Shown here: positions 34,480 to 51,925 of the stretch, in pieces | Position numbering within the stretch: position 1 is the first letter of the stretch | How the letters are laid out: each line of letters starts with the position of its first letter | Origin: Dictyostelium discoideum | Lineage: Eukaryota | Assembly: GCA_000004695.1 (NCBI GenBank) | Contig: CM000152.2 | Span: 576,001-640,000 of the forward strand | DNA: 64,000 nucleotides | Direction of reading: 5' to 3' | Made by a program: the position numbers and the translations under genes | Notes under the pieces: generated by a model | What the model was told of the DNA's origin: nothing | Database searches by the model: none | What the model saw: only the letters and a program-made list of their open reading frames with translations

Positions 34480-35449
34480 TTATTTTAATAAAATTTTATC
34501 AACAATTTTTTCATAAGCAATTACATTTGGATCATTTGATCTTTGTTCAATGAATGGTGAATTAATATCAACATATCTTGAACATTGTAATGACCATAAA
34601 TAATTACCACCCAATATTAATTTCATTGATCTTGTTAATAATTTTAAATCATCTCTTTGTTCAATTGGACATTCTAAAAGTAAAATTCTTTCATCTTCAC
34701 AAATTTGATTCATAATTTCATCATTAAATTTTAAAATTACTTTATAAACATTATCAAATGAACCAACTTGATTTTGTAAAAAATGTAAAGGGTTAGTTAA
34801 ATGATTATTATTTCTAATTTCTTTTGCATAGGAAGCACAATCATTCATTGTAGCCATTTGGTATCCACCATTAGTTGCAAATCTATCAAATCTTGGATTA
34901 ATCCAAATTTTTGGATCAATCTTTGAATTTGGATATAAAAGCATTGCAACTGAAAGTGAAACATATGTACCAGAATTAGTTCTTTTAAAAAAATTATAAC
35001 TATCATAATTATTTAAATTCTTTTTTTTTTTTTATTTATATTAATATTATTTAAAAATTAAAAATCAAATAAGTTTAAAAAAAAAAAAGAAAAAGAAAGA
35101 ATTAAAAATACATTACATCAGCTCTATTAAATGGATTAATTGAATTAATCCAATCAATAATAAATTTTAAAAATTGATTAAAGAATTCAATTTTTTCACC
35201 AACAAATTGTTTGGTTGTTTCTCTAAAATATAAAACATATTTTTCAATGTTTGAAATATTATTAGAATCATAAAAATTTCCATCCATAAAAATATGTTCC
35301 AATTTTTTAATTAATTCTCTAGAGTCATCTGGATTTGTTAATTTACTCTCTAAAAAATCATCAACTACAAAACAAACTGTAAGATATCTTGATGCAACCA
35401 AAAGTTGTTCATAGTTACATAAAGGATATAAATAAATTGTACTGGAAAC

Positions 35450-35509
<60 letters not shown>

Positions 35510-35752
35510 TAATTATAATTTTAAAAAATAAATAAATAAAATAATAATAATAATAATAGTAATATTAATATTAATAATAATAATATAGTTTTAAATTTAT
35601 TTACTTGTTCCATAATAATATTCAAGTGTTTTTTTATTTTCTTCAAATAATTTAAAATCAACAACTTCTTTATAACAAGTGTATATACACTTATCATTTG
35701 CAGGTGGTTCAATCCAATCTTCTGGGAATTTGAAATCATGAAGAGAATACAT
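34480..35752 (-). CDS. Microbial-type terpene synthase (class I, DDxxD/E + NSE/DTE motifs), paralog A
   Basis: Three exons: 35605..35752, 35117..35448 and 34480..35019. Introns are GTAAAT...TTTAG (156 nt) and GTAATG...AAAG (97 nt). The Asp-rich motif is ...LVASRYLTVCFVVDDFLESKL and the NSE/DTE motif is ...ATMNDCASYAKEIR. The gene is co-linear with paralog B in exon sizes (148, 332 and 540 nt). Confidence 0.75.
35457..35502. repeat. A46 homopolymer within intron 1 of terpene synthase A
   Basis: 46 consecutive A, counted directly. Confidence 0.95.
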
Positions 35753-36466: not shown

Positions 36467-37676
36467 TTATAATTTAATAATTTTATCAACAATATTTTCA
36501 TAAGCAATTACATCAGGATTAATTGATCTTTGTTCAATAAATGGTGAATCAATATCATTAAATCTAGTACATTTCAATGACCAAGAATAATTACCACCCA
36601 ATATTAATTTCATTGATCTTGTTAAATATTTTAAATCATCTTTCTGATCATCTGGACACTCTTTTAAAAGTAATTCTTCATCTTTACAAATTTCATTAAC
36701 AATTTTGTTATTAAAATTTAAAATTAATTTATAAACTTGATCAAATGAACCAATTTCTTTTTGTAAAAAATATAATGGATTTGTTAAATGACAATTACTT
36801 CTAACTTCTTTTGCATAAGATGCACAATCATTAAATGCTGACATTTGATACGCACCATTACAAACAAATCTTTCAAATCTTGGATTCATCCAAATATTAG
36901 TATCAACTTTTGTATTTGGATTTAAAAGCATAGCCATTGAAAGAGTTACATATGTTCCAGAATTAACCTTTTTAAAAAAATTATAACTATCATAATTATT
37001 TAAATTCTTTATTTTTAATATAAAAAAAATAATGTTAATAATAATAAGTAATAATAAATAAGAATAAAAATAATAATAATAAAAATTTTATAAATTTATA
37101 ATTACAATTGCCTTATTAAATGGATTAATTGAATTTATCCATTCAACAAAAAATTTAATAAATTGATTAAAAATGTTAATTTTATCACCAACAAATTGTC
37201 TTGCTTTACCTCTAAAAAACATTGTATATTTTTCAATATTTGAAATATTAGATTGGTCAAGATATTCACCATCAATTAAAATATTTTCAATCTTTTTTGA
37301 CATTAAATTTGAAGTTTCTGAATCAACTAAATTACTTTCCAAAAAGTCATCAATAAGATATCCAACTGTAAGAAATCTACATGCAATTACAAGTTGTTCA
37401 TAATTACATAATGGATAGAAGTTTATGGTACTTGAAACTATTGTAAAATAAATAAAATATTAATTTATATATATAAAATTTATATATCAATTAAATATTA
37501 AATTTATTTTAAAAAAATAAATAATTACGTGTTCCATAATAATATTGAAAAGTTTGTTTATTTTCGTCTAATAATTTATAATTGATAACTTCTTTATAAC
37601 AATCATAAATACATTTATCATCTGCTGTTGGTTCAATCCAATCGCTTGGGTATTTAAAATCATAAATTGAATACAT
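36467..37676 (-). CDS. Microbial-type terpene synthase, paralog B (tandem duplicate of paralog A)
   Basis: Exons 37529..37676, 37106..37437 and 36467..37006, the same sizes and phases as paralog A. Product: MYSIYDFKYPSDWIEPTADDKCIYDCYKEVINYKLLDENKQTFQYYYGT|LSSTINFYPLCNYEQLVIACRFLTVGYLIDDFLESNLVDSE...NKAI|NLNNYDSYNFFKKVNSGTYVTLSMAMLLNPNTK...SAFNDCASYAKEVR.... It is about 60-65% identical to A at protein level. The junction-flanking nucleotides are conserved. Confidence 0.75.
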
Positions 37677-45800: not shown

Positions 45801-46611
45801 CTCCATCCCTTTTCATAATCCCATAACTTTATAAACATATCATCCGATGATGATAATATATATGGTAATGTTGGATGAACTATAATACATCTAATATAAT
45901 CGGCATGTGCTTCAAATGATTTTATCTTTTCCATTGTATTATAATTATAAACTCTAATATATGTATCATCACTACCTGTAACTATCCATTGTTTCTTTGC
46001 AATGAATCTTGCTGTTCTAACTGGATTATTTGGTGAAACTTCAAATGATTTTACCATATTCTTTAATATTTTACATAATCAATCATCATCATCATCATCA
46101 TCATCATCATTTTTTTCAAAAAAAAAAAAAAAAAAAAAAAAAAAGAGTTTTGTGTGACATTATTATGATAATATTAGTATAAATAATTTATTTAAAACAT
46201 TATTGTTATTGTTATTATTGATTATACTATATGTAAATACATACTTGAGTTTCATAATTCCAAATATAAACATTACCATCATATAAACTTGCTAAAATCC
46301 ATGGTTCTGTTGGGTGAATATCAACAGATTTAACTCTATCTGATCTTGTTGATAATTTTTTCTATATATTAATTATTATTATTATTGTTATTGTTTTTTT
46401 ATAATTGTTATTTTATAGTTTAGAATTATTTTTATATTGATAAGAGAATATTAAATACAGTAAAAAATTAAAAAAAGAGTTAGGAGTGTGAGTTAAATTT
46501 TTATTTTTTATATTTTTTATTATTTTTTTTTTTTCAATTATTAATATCTTAAAGAATATAATAATAAAAATAATAATTAAATAATACCTTAATATCTAAA
46601 CGTAAAGGCAT
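42891..46611 (-). CDS. Coatomer subunit beta-prime (COPI beta'-COP)
   Basis: Six exons: 46588..46611 (MPLRLDIK), 46245..46361, 44795..46060, 44384..44716, 43962..44273 and 42891..43856. The protein is co-linear with human COPB2 throughout: MPLRLDIK|[39 protein letters not shown]|NMVKSFEV...(WD40)...[12 protein letters not shown]|[13 protein letters not shown]...LYLSDK|[73 protein letters not shown]...LSIGE|[30 protein letters not shown].... Donors are GTATTA, GTATGT, the non-canonical GTTTGT, GTAAAG and GTAAAT. Confidence 0.9.
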
Positions 46612-46908
46612 TTTTTTATTTTTTTATATATTTTAAATATATATTGATAAAAAATATATATTAATAATTGAAAAAAAAAAAAAAAAATGATTTTTTTATA
46701 AAAAAAAAAAAAAAAATAAAAAATAAAAAAAAAAAAAATTTTGAAAATTTAAAAAAATGATGTTGAAGTTTCATTTTTGGCCACGTATAAAAAAAAAAAT
46801 AAACAAATTACACCTTAATTTTTATTTTTTAATAAAAAAATTGGTTATGTCTTTTGTGTAAAATAAATAAATATATACATACTAGGTGTTCAATGCATTG
46901 TTGTTAAA

Positions 46909-46949
<41 letters not shown>

Positions 46950-47185
46950 ACTCAATATTGAGGGAAAAAAAAAAAGAAATTAAAAAAATAAAAAGTAAAA
47001 ATAACAAAAAAAAAAAATTATTTTTTAGATATATTTATATATACAGATTTTTTTATTTAATTAATAATTTACAAATGTGTTTTTTTTTTTTTTTTTTTTT
47101 TTTTTTTTCTTTGGAAATCTTGGCAATGACTTTTTAACTTTTTGGGTTGGCACTTGTTTTAAAAATTGTTTTTTTGGTTTTTTTT

Positions 47186-47368
47186 TTATTTGGAAATCTT
47201 TGTGGAAGTCTTGGTGGAATATTTGCCCTTGGAGAGGATTCTTTTGGATTTTGAAAACATTGGTAATGACTTTTTAACTTTTTGGGTTAGTACTTGTTTT
47301 AAATCAAACATTTGAACTCTAGTTCTTTTTGATAATTGGATTGCTCTTCTTGTTACAATTTTAACCAT
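47186..47368 (-). CDS. Small basic ORF (60 aa), paralog 1 of a divergent pair; function unknown
   Basis: MVKIVTRRAIQLSKRTRVQMFDLKQVLTQKVKKSLPMFSKSKRILSKGKYSTKTSTKISK with an A-rich start context. The 3' half overlaps a 45-bp tandem duplication (..cattaccaatg/cattgccaag..actttttaactttttgggtt..). Confidence 0.3.
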   Translation of the reverse strand: MVKIVTRRAIQLSKRTRVQMFDLKQVLTQKVKKSLPMFSKSKRILSKGKYSTKTSTKISK

Positions 47369-47865
47369 TTTTTTTTTATTTTTTAAAACCTTTTTATTTA
47401 TTTATTTTGATTTATTTGCTTTTATTTAATTATTTTTTGATTTGTTTAAAAAATTACAAAATTTTGGTTGGTATTTATTTTAGAAAAAAAATAAATGAAA
47501 AAAAAAAAATTATAAAAAAAAAAATAAAAAAAATTATTTGTGGATTGACTTTTACAAGAAATCTTTTTTTTTTTGTTAAAAAATTTTTTTATTTTTTGCT
47601 TAAATTAAAAAAAAAAAAACAAGAGAAAAAAAAAAGATAAGAATGATCAAGAGTTCTTTTTTTTATTTTAAGCAAAAAATATTATTTTCTTGTAAAAATA
47701 AAAATAAAAATAAAAATAAAATTTTGTCATCCTCAATTTAAACCTTTTTTTTTTTTTTTTATTTTTTTTATTTTTTTTTTTTAAGATTTTTATGAATAAA
47801 TTTATAAATTAGTTTTTAATAAAGAAATACATTAAAGAAAAAAAAATAATAATAAAGAAAATAAA

Positions 47866-48015
47866 ATGGTTAAAATAACAACTAGAAGATCAATCAAATT
47901 ATCAAAAAGAAATAGAGTTCAATTATTTGATTTAAAGCAAATTCTTGTACAAAGAGTCAAAAAATCTCCTCAATTATCCATAAAAAAAAAAATTACAAAA
48001 ATCAAACATAAATAA
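47866..48015 (+). CDS. Small basic ORF (49 aa), paralog 2, transcribed divergently from 47186..47368
   Basis: MVKITTRRSIKLSKRNRVQLFDLKQILVQRVKKSPQLSIKKKITKIKHK*. The first 34 codons are about 75% identical in protein (about 80% in nucleotides) to the minus-strand copy. It is below the 60-aa cut-off of the ORF track. Confidence 0.3.
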   Translation: MVKITTRRSIKLSKRNRVQLFDLKQILVQRVKKSPQLSIKKKITKIKHK

Positions 48016-48576
48016 AAGTACCTGAAAGTTGTGAAAATAAAAAAAAAAAAAATTGGCTGTTTATGAAACTACTCAAAATGGACCAAAAGGAGTATTGATC
48101 AACAAAAAAAAAAACTTTATGATAGATAACCTTGCGGGTAGTTTAACGTCACCCCCACCACTGCATCGAAAACTAATAAATTTTTAATTAATTATATTCA
48201 AATTTTATTCTACAAATCCAAATTTTTTTTTCTTTTTTTTTTTTTCTTTTTTTTATTTTTTTTTATTTAAACAATTTTTTTTATTTTTAAAGAATATTTT
48301 TTTTTTTTTTTTTTATTGTTTGCACTTTTTCAGATTTTTTTTACTTTTTTTTTATTTTTTGTATGCTTTTTATAGATTTTTTTTTTTAGATATTTTTATT
48401 TAATTTTTGAATGATTTTTTTACTTTTTTTTTACTTTTTTTTTTATTTTTTTTTTTTAAAAAAAAAAAAGGTTACCTTTAATGTCCACCATACACCTCAA
48501 AATAAGTAAAATAAATTTTTAATGCCTAAAAAAAGCCACCACAACCCATAATAAATAAAAATATAATTTTTTATTA

Positions 48577-48578
<2 letters not shown>

Positions 48579-48627
<49 letters not shown>
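48579..48627. repeat. A49 homopolymer
   Basis: Counted directly. Confidence 0.95.
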
Positions 48628-48629
<2 letters not shown>

Positions 48630-49079
48630 TATTTAAAAAGAATTTGATTACTTTTTTTTTTATTATTCTCCAAAAACAGATTTTTTTAATTTTTTTTTTT
48701 TTTGAGATTTTCACTCCGATTTCAAAGCATTATTTGAATTGAACTGTTAGGGTGATGAATTTTTCCCAGCACACACAGAAAAATTATTTTCTAATGGAAT
48801 AGTATTACGGCAAGCCGACAGACACTATATTGTTCCACAATGATTAATCAAAAAATCGAAAAAATTTTATTTTTAAATTAACATAATTTTTTTTTTTTTT
48901 CTTTTTTTTTTATTTTCTTTTTTTTTTTTTTTTTAATGTATAATATTATTTTAATTTTTTAAAATTTTTTTTTTTTTTTTTGGAAATTTGTTCTATAAAT
49001 AATTTGTATTTTTATTTGTCATTATAAAAATTAAGAGTTTTACTTTACTCTTAAATAAATAAATTTGGTTAATTCTCTA

Positions 49080-49081
<2 letters not shown>

Positions 49082-49126
<45 letters not shown>
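49082..49126. repeat. T45 homopolymer upstream of the frizzled-like gene
   Basis: Counted directly. Confidence 0.95.
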
Positions 49127-49127
<1 letters not shown>

Positions 49128-49260
49128 TTTAATATAAAAGATAAATAATAATAATAATAAAAAATAATTTAAAATTAATTTTTATAAAATATAAAATAGT
49201 AATTAATAATAAAAAAAAAAAAAAAAAAAAGTAAAATAGTTTTAAAAAAAAAAAAAAAAA

Positions 49261-51925
<2,665 letters not shown>

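Follow-up and report, generated by a model that had tools for sequence, protein, structure and literature searches.

Probable divergent microprotein genes from an inverted duplication in Dictyostelium discoideum

Two short open reading frames (ORFs) lying head-to-head in an intergenic gap of Dictyostelium discoideum raise the question of whether they are a pair of genes, the remains of a longer gene or by-products of some other element. They span positions 47186 to 48015 of the 64,000-nucleotide stretch analysed here (the window; positions 576,001 to 640,000 of contig CM000152.2, a record that we take to be chromosome 3 of strain AX4), which has a GC (guanine plus cytosine) content of 21.5%. 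The reading favoured here, given a probability of roughly 60%, is that they are functional, divergent paralogous microprotein genes which arose from an inverted duplication and encode a Dictyostelium-restricted basic N-terminal helix. The locus contains an inverted duplication, and its two products belong to a small protein family in which a shared module, subject to protein-level constraint, stands at the N-terminus. How far these observations carry the reading as a whole is weighed below against four other explanations, each of them introduced alongside the evidence that bears on it.

The two reading frames and the spacer between them

The ORF on the minus strand (47186..47368) encodes 60 amino acids, MVKIVTRRAIQLSKRTRVQMFDLKQVLTQKVKKSLPMFSKSKRILSKGKYSTKTSTKISK, and matches exactly, over all 60 residues, DDB_G0278287 (UniProt Q54YD7, XP_642265.1), a hypothetical protein of D. 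discoideum AX4. Its twin on the plus strand (47866..48015) encodes 49 amino acids, MVKITTRRSIKLSKRNRVQLFDLKQILVQRVKKSPQLSIKKKITKIKHK; this exact sequence was found neither in a collection of 15 billion proteins nor among called genes, and the twin is apparently an unannotated gene. The description of the pair given in a first-pass annotation of the window is accurate in its main points. The two frames, both taken from a list of ORFs, are arranged head-to-head, and 497 bp separate the two ATGs, where about 500 bp had been noted. The identity of about 80% claimed for the first 100 nt or so amounts to 82/102 nt (80.4%) counted from the ATG, the start contexts are indeed A-rich (A10-ATGG and AAAATAAAATGG), and both products are rich in Lys and Arg (30% and 35% Lys plus Arg, with an isoelectric point of about 12 and one acidic residue per protein). 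The 102 aligned nucleotides, which form codons 1-34 of each gene and code for most of the shared module, occupy 47267..47368 on the minus strand and 47866..47967 on the plus strand. The similarity between the two arms reaches a local alignment score of 107, against 20.1 +/- 3.2 (maximum 34) for dinucleotide shuffles, and upstream of the ATG the identity falls to 50-60% and then to 40%, the background for AT-rich DNA. Downstream of each stop codon, the first AATAAA in the 3' direction (47052..47057 on the minus strand, 48036..48041 on the plus strand) is a candidate poly(A) signal, named as such from the sequence alone.

The 497-bp spacer between the start codons (47369..47865), with a GC content of 10.7%, is a putative shared divergent promoter. 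Its two halves align with each other in reverse complement with a score of 94, a value that none of 300 shuffles reached (48.4 +/- 8.0), and the alignment carries 13 gaps over about 220 nt around a centre of symmetry at about 47617-47654. Since the promoter halves can still be aligned as mirror images and carry matching motifs, the duplication took in the promoter as well as the coding sequence, and the segment 47268-47966 as a whole, with both promoter halves, represents a small gene duplicated in its entirety, long ago and in inverted orientation. The matching motifs are the GC-containing GTCAATCCACAA at 47538..47549 on the minus strand, about -183 from the minus ATG, and GTCATCCTCAA at 47726..47736 on the plus strand, about -140 from the plus ATG, which mirror each other and may constitute a conserved cis-element. 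A similar sequence, (A/T)C(C/T)TCAAT, is seen upstream of the D. purpureum 147-amino-acid genes described below, at about -127 from the ATG at one locus (L002) and about -129 at another (L004). Of the decayed inverted duplication proposed in the first-pass annotation, the inverted duplication therefore stands, and extends to the promoter, but the coding arms are not decayed.

An inverted repeat of this kind could also be transcribed as one RNA, the palindrome then forming a long imperfect hairpin that supplies a small-RNA pathway, with the ORFs incidental. As a single strand, 47260-47975 folds with -165 kcal/mol, compared with -112 +/- 5 for shuffles (z = -10.6), the 5' parts of the ORFs making up the stem; such folding is, however, automatic for any inverted duplication. 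The differences between the arms do not look like those of a stem, as just 4 of the 20 would be wobble-compatible in an RNA from the plus strand and 6 of the 20 in an RNA from the minus strand, and they fall preferentially at synonymous positions, a bias not expected of a stem. In two species, moreover, loci without an inverted partner conserve the same sequence as the N-terminus of a protein, and an Rfam scan of 46000-49400 (E <= 1) returned only two chance-level matches to poly-T/A hairpins (E about 0.5), both away from the ORFs. A hairpin-RNA locus is accordingly considered extremely unlikely.

A constrained N-terminal module and its relatives

The differences between the two copies are distributed as would be expected of coding sequence. 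Across the 34 codons, the Nei-Gojobori method counts 9.5 synonymous differences over 21.5 sites and 10.5 non-synonymous differences over 80.5 sites, so that the proportion of synonymous differences (pS) is 0.44 and that of non-synonymous differences (pN) 0.13 (Fisher P = 0.0015). The corresponding ratio of non-synonymous to synonymous rates (dN/dS) is about 0.21, not close to the value of 1 that the first-pass annotation had associated with a neutral duplicated noncoding segment. Because the genome is extremely AT-biased, 20 random substitutions were also simulated, with base frequencies and transition bias combined in nine ways and only stop-free runs kept; of these runs, 0.03-4% attained a synonymous excess as large as that observed (P = 0.0003-0.04). 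The 34 codons align without an indel, in contrast to the 13 gaps in the equally old promoter halves, and the next ten codons or so contain one indel of 3 nt, which is in frame (SLPMFSKSKRI vs S-PQLSIKKKI). Both copies retain an intact ORF beginning with ATG, and in both, stops are numerous in the two alternative frames of the conserved part. These observations point to protein-level constraint on the conserved 34-45 codons since the duplication, a conclusion held with greater confidence than the favoured reading as a whole.

Relatives of the two ORFs were sought with HMMER among 1.84 billion representative proteins, using both ORFs as query. The scan matched four proteins: the query gene, two dictyostelid proteins in which the match starts at Met1, and a repetitive 978-amino-acid metagenomic translation whose 11 weak stretches of match were regarded as spurious. 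The family comprises three clusters at 50% identity. The first relative (KAM9957567.1; E = 1.7e-5, profile positions 1-49 on residues 1-56) is a protein of 320 amino acids, encoded by a single-exon gene in two non-AX4 assemblies of D. discoideum; in this protein the module is joined through a Q-rich linker to an L-type lectin domain (PF18483). Its residues 1 to about 50 (MVKIATRSSTKLSKRNRVQLFDLHELL...KKVKKTTSQKSKSKSK) cover the whole of the small ORFs, and tblastn aligns this N-terminus to the plus ORF with E = 7e-11. Orthologs are present in D. cf. discoideum, D. citrinum and D. dimigraforme, which places the protein in the D. discoideum species complex, and across the four orthologs identity is 86% in the module (residues 1-45), 83% in the lectin domain and 61% in the gapped Q-rich linker. 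At its locus in D. discoideum GCA_054859385.1 (L001, 6001-6963), the lectin-domain gene adjoins a discoidin-type gene (F5_F8_type_C plus H_lectin), and five paralogous small genes (112-138 amino acids) lie in a row in the same neighbourhood.

The second relative (E = 6.8e-4, profile positions 1-46 on residues 1-48) is an uncharacterized protein of 147 amino acids from D. purpureum, basic and Ser/Thr/Lys-rich, which exists in four copies with at least 90% protein identity on four scaffolds (DICPUDRAFT_146515, 78011, 83078 and 155415). From Met1 onwards, its module is 59-67% identical to the window ORFs over 27 residues, and the protein apparently holds two internal degenerate copies of the motif, the C-terminal one with E = 0.036 and the middle one recognised by eye only. 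Across all four family genes nucleotide similarity begins exactly at the ATG, and pS equals or exceeds pN in all pairwise comparisons over 27 codons. The earlier conjecture that the ORFs belong to a small undescribed family of basic proteins is borne out: the search for other copies found the module in two further proteins, matched from residue 1, and a Pfam scan (E <= 10) assigned no family to either ORF or to the 147-amino-acid protein. By blastn, the 64-kb window holds no further copy of the module. Scans of metagenome DNA gave 0 matches to a 30-base pattern and 3 to a 20-base pattern, all of them chance matches in unrelated frames, and word-index searches with the ORF pair or a four-sequence module alignment returned the query gene only, having missed even the lectin-domain protein whose N-terminus was included in the query, and are hence unreliable for a motif as short as this.

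Multiplication of the gene in D. purpureum brings in the possibility of a mobile element, in which case the inverted repeat in the window would be what is left of a DNA transposon or some other repeat, with the ORF encoded by that element. The four near-identical copies lie on different scaffolds and share a block of about 0.8 kb, and one of them adjoins a gene model with a DDE_Tnp_4 match. In a DNA-level comparison of three of the four loci, however, the common block, 88-95% identical, consists of the gene flanked by about 230 bp on its 5' side and about 130 bp on its 3' side, contains neither terminal repeats nor a transposase in these three copies, and does not include the DDE match. Two of the loci are contained in a segmental duplication of about 5.5 kb (L002 1038-6542 vs L003 347-5532, on GL870941 and GL871030) with 80-95% identity, and no transposon-type ORF was found in the L002 segment; the duplication also holds a 130-amino-acid gene and internal tandem repeats (His/Ser/Ile-rich minus-strand ORFs). 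The single pair in the window, the lack of any transposable-element domain in the ORFs, and a family of only three clusters among 1.84 billion representatives likewise speak against an element, as does the mirror similarity, which begins at the promoter and the ATG rather than at element ends. Origin from a mobile element is therefore judged highly improbable.

The conserved part of the module, residues 1 to about 45, reads MV(K/R)I.TR.S..L.KR.RVQ.F(D/N)L..(V/I)L ... (K/R)VKK. Its first half, KI.TRRS.KLSKRNR, is strongly basic; its second half, VQLFDLKQ(V/I)L.Q.V, bears hydrophobic residues and is followed by the (K/R)VKK cluster. AlphaFold2, supplied with a seven-sequence alignment of the family, predicts a single helix over residues 7-34 with a confidence score (pLDDT) of about 73 and a disordered tail. 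This prediction fits a basic amphipathic helix used for binding or targeting, the partner of which may be a nucleic acid, importin or a protein. A sequence search of the PDB (E <= 10) gave no match for the module, and none of the linear motifs looked for by eye (D-box, RxL, RVxF, PKA site, calmodulin-binding) is kept across the four family members. A model of the lectin-domain protein built from four sequences reached a pLDDT of 30 and is uninformative on docking of the helix to the lectin domain.

C-terminal tails and the surrounding gap

Beyond the module, the two genes have gone separate ways. The minus ORF had been described as containing two tandem 45-bp units, but the repeat is really a non-adjacent direct repeat of 65 nt (repeat family D10), its two copies starting 140 nt apart and the second lying beyond the stop codon. 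The copies are 83% identical over 65 nt and, by blastn, 89% over 54 nt, with an alignment score of 78 against 20.7 +/- 3.5 for shuffles. The copy within the ORF (47239..47303, minus strand) encodes LKQVLTQKVKKSLPMFSK. The other (47099..47163, minus strand), probably part of the 3' untranslated region (UTR), begins 23 nt past the stop codon in a different frame from the ORF, has no ATG, and gives, when read in its own frame, LKQVPTQKVKKSLPRFPK(10), which is closer to the plus tail SPQLSIKKKITK than the present tail of the minus ORF is. That present tail is fast-evolving and is built by a microrepeat of 12 nt (CCAAGATTTCCA-like, 2.4 copies, 47191..47219 on the minus strand), the only unit that Tandem Repeats Finder reported. 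The C-terminus of the minus gene appears, from this arrangement, to have been reshaped by partial duplication and expansion of the 12-nt unit, leaving an older end stranded in the 3' UTR.

The minus strand of 47061-47270 is poor in T, and as a result none of its three frames meets a stop codon for 50-70 codons. A 1-nt insertion would fuse frame 2 of the minus ORF to the second repeat copy, and the AX4 minus gene may conceivably derive, by a frameshift, from one that encoded a longer protein with two repeats; with all three frames open on a T-poor strand, this fusion was given no weight. A splice of the form GTACTAAC...AG joining the repeat copies was rejected, as the 140-nt "intron" shifts the frame and the candidate sites are not conserved between the copies.

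The gap around the pair measures 2,649 bp between the flanking ATGs at 46611 and 49261, in keeping with the 2.6 kb first noted, but is not as empty as was then thought. Three islands within it (48053-48190, 48470-48560 and 48705-48860) have a GC content of 27-39%, compared with 4-15% elsewhere in the gap, and could be unannotated non-coding RNA (ncRNA) genes or regulatory blocks. The first overlaps just one 44-amino-acid ORF, which starts with TTG and has no Pfam match, and the other two contain no ORF of at least 30 amino acids. None of the three has an Rfam match, a transfer RNA (tRNA) match or a paralog within the window, and a tRNA scan of the whole window found none. For the plus strand of 48705-48850, the predicted fold is marginally more stable than that of shuffles (z = -2.0). 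At 48544-48551, a DUSE-like ACCCATAA is the single intergenic match to the DUSE promoter motif of ncRNA genes, which we take to be [AT]CCCA[CT]AA; the motif is absent upstream of both ORFs, and its matches in the window number no more than expected by chance. A splice leading from the plus ORF into the first island was discarded, there being no AG before the island and the candidate sites differing between the two copies. Long homopolymer runs also occur in the gap (T38 at 46911-46948, T29 at 47080-47108, A49 at 48579-48627 and T45 at 49082-49126).

To the left of the gap lies the beta'-COP gene (Pfam match to the COPA/B beta-propeller), on the minus strand, with a first exon MPLRLDIK starting at ATG 46611; a (CAT)n run at about 46083-46110 falls in the intron that precedes its exon at 46057. 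To the right lies a multi-exon gene with its ATG at 49261 and a signal-peptide-like N-terminus, fragments of which received no classification in a Pfam scan. Each small ORF is directed toward the flanking gene on its own strand, an arrangement that would suit a role as upstream ORFs or leader peptides in the control of these two genes, beta'-COP on one side and a membrane-protein gene on the other, and a duplicated promoter-proximal upstream ORF had been among the first suggestions. The next ATG is, however, 574 or 1,245 bp away, with an AATAAA and homopolymers of 29-49 nt in between, and the sequence in question forms the N-terminus of independent proteins of 147 and 320 amino acids. Upstream ORFs are the least likely of the explanations considered here. 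Elsewhere in the window, tandem paralogous gene copies are found at 35102-35752 and 37088-37676, with small ORFs encoding related peptides at 35102-35287 / 37088-37303 and 35597-35752 / 37509-37676 (e.g. MYSLHDFKFPEDWIEPPANDKCIY and MYSIYDFKYPSDWIEPTADDKCIY).

The favoured reading and its relation to known systems

Several observations weigh against two functional genes. The C-terminal tails of the two ORFs are unrelated, and that of the minus ORF appears remodelled by partial duplication. The codon-usage log-odds, 0.16 and -0.03 per codon, lie between those of small intergenic ORFs (-0.27 +/- 0.43) and those of coding chunks (0.49 +/- 0.22) and are ambiguous. Conservation extends over 34-45 codons only, the dN/dS test rests on 20 differences, and the distribution of these differences over the three codon positions (6/4/10) is not significant by itself (chi-square estimate, P about 0.25). 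The contrast in indels is weakened by the promoter being homopolymer-rich and hence more indel-prone. The identifier DDB_G0278287 was not found in the searched literature or in transcriptome, proteome and comparative supplements, the life-cycle proteome included, and nothing was found in the searched literature on Dictyostelium small ORFs. The ORF products are not among called genes, which is uninformative, as the caller misses the ORF in AX4-derived data too; a neighbour of 1,409 amino acids was likewise not found among them, and the neighbouring IleRS gene matched just transcript-like Logan contigs of 3.3 kb, ending short of the locus. Protein matches to the lectin-domain query include no AX4 protein, and the idea that the small proteins have the same partner as the lectin-domain protein may fail for AX4. 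The reference strain may, going by these matches, lack the gene for that protein or have it unannotated. Function, finally, is deduced only from composition and a medium-confidence helix.

Some of these points feed the strongest rival, according to which the ORFs are gene relics, drifting non-functional 5' fragments of a longer gene of the lectin type or similar to the 147-amino-acid gene, which were duplicated in inverted orientation and whose frames are open just by chance and T-poor composition. The ORFs match residues 1 to about 50 of the lectin-domain protein and end where its low-complexity linker begins, as a fragment might, their tails are unrelated, open frames are cheap on the minus strand at 47061-47270, and codon usage does not decide the matter. 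The rival owes its rank to conservation being confined to the module and to the expression of both ORFs being presumed. Neutral drift does not, however, account for the low dN/dS with its significant synonymous excess since the duplication, for codons that stayed free of indels up to a single in-frame one while the equally old promoter halves accumulated gaps, or for the ATG, A-rich start context and nearby AATAAA retained in both copies. Gene relics are, on this evidence, unlikely.

On the favoured reading, an old inverted duplication would have copied a complete small gene, promoter and coding region together, to give DDB_G0278287 and its twin, both of which would be expressed from the shared mirror-image promoter. 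The tails show no conservation and are made up of short repeats, and the free-standing helices would act in binding or targeting, directed to nucleic acid, to the nucleus or to the partner contacted by the module in larger proteins. If that partner is shared with the larger proteins, the helices would work as stand-alone, "module-only" microproteins. Confidence in this role, suggested by the predicted structure, is lower than that in the reading as a whole. A more far-reaching version, in which the helix is a new Dictyostelium-specific targeting or interaction module and the window genes, co-regulated from their mirror-image promoter, encode dedicated competitors for one and the same site that tune the localisation or partner binding of larger proteins with the module, among them the cytosolic one with an L-type lectin domain, is speculative and quite improbable.

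The plus-strand twin of DDB_G0278287 is a probable addition to the AX4 gene set, and an orphan "hypothetical protein" joins a small family of dictyostelid proteins whose hallmark is a basic N-terminal helix not described before. With the module standing alone in two genes, fused to a lectin domain in another and present in a multi-copy relative, the family provides a compact case of taxonomically restricted microproteins arising through partial or whole gene duplication. The locus is an ordinary lineage-specific gene duplicate and, outside annotation and its use as an evolutionary example, poses no challenge to current understanding.

Set beside what is already described, the pair resembles several systems in part. 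The database entry for DDB_G0278287 is a bare prediction, which names no family and no paralog and makes no mention of the twin 497 bp away. The lectin-domain protein carries the module from Met1 as the window ORFs do, but differs from them in its length of 320 amino acids, its Q-rich linker and its PF18483 domain. The 147-amino-acid protein of D. purpureum likewise has the module from Met1 and is likewise basic, but it is longer and is encoded by four dispersed, near-identical copies instead of a head-to-head pair. MicroProteins or small interfering peptides, such as plant LITTLE ZIPPER and animal Id proteins, consist of a single module that has its homologue in one part of a larger protein with several domains, and the window ORFs match residues 1 to about 50 of the 320-amino-acid protein from end to end in the same way; the matches to the larger relative include, however, no AX4 protein, and the likeness is one of analogy, not of membership. 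With inverted-repeat loci that produce hairpin RNA, the pair has in common arms of about 100-150 nt which are 74-80% complementary and lie about 400-500 nt apart, whereas the differences between the arms here follow codons and not base pairs, and the arms hold outward-directed ORFs together with their promoter halves.

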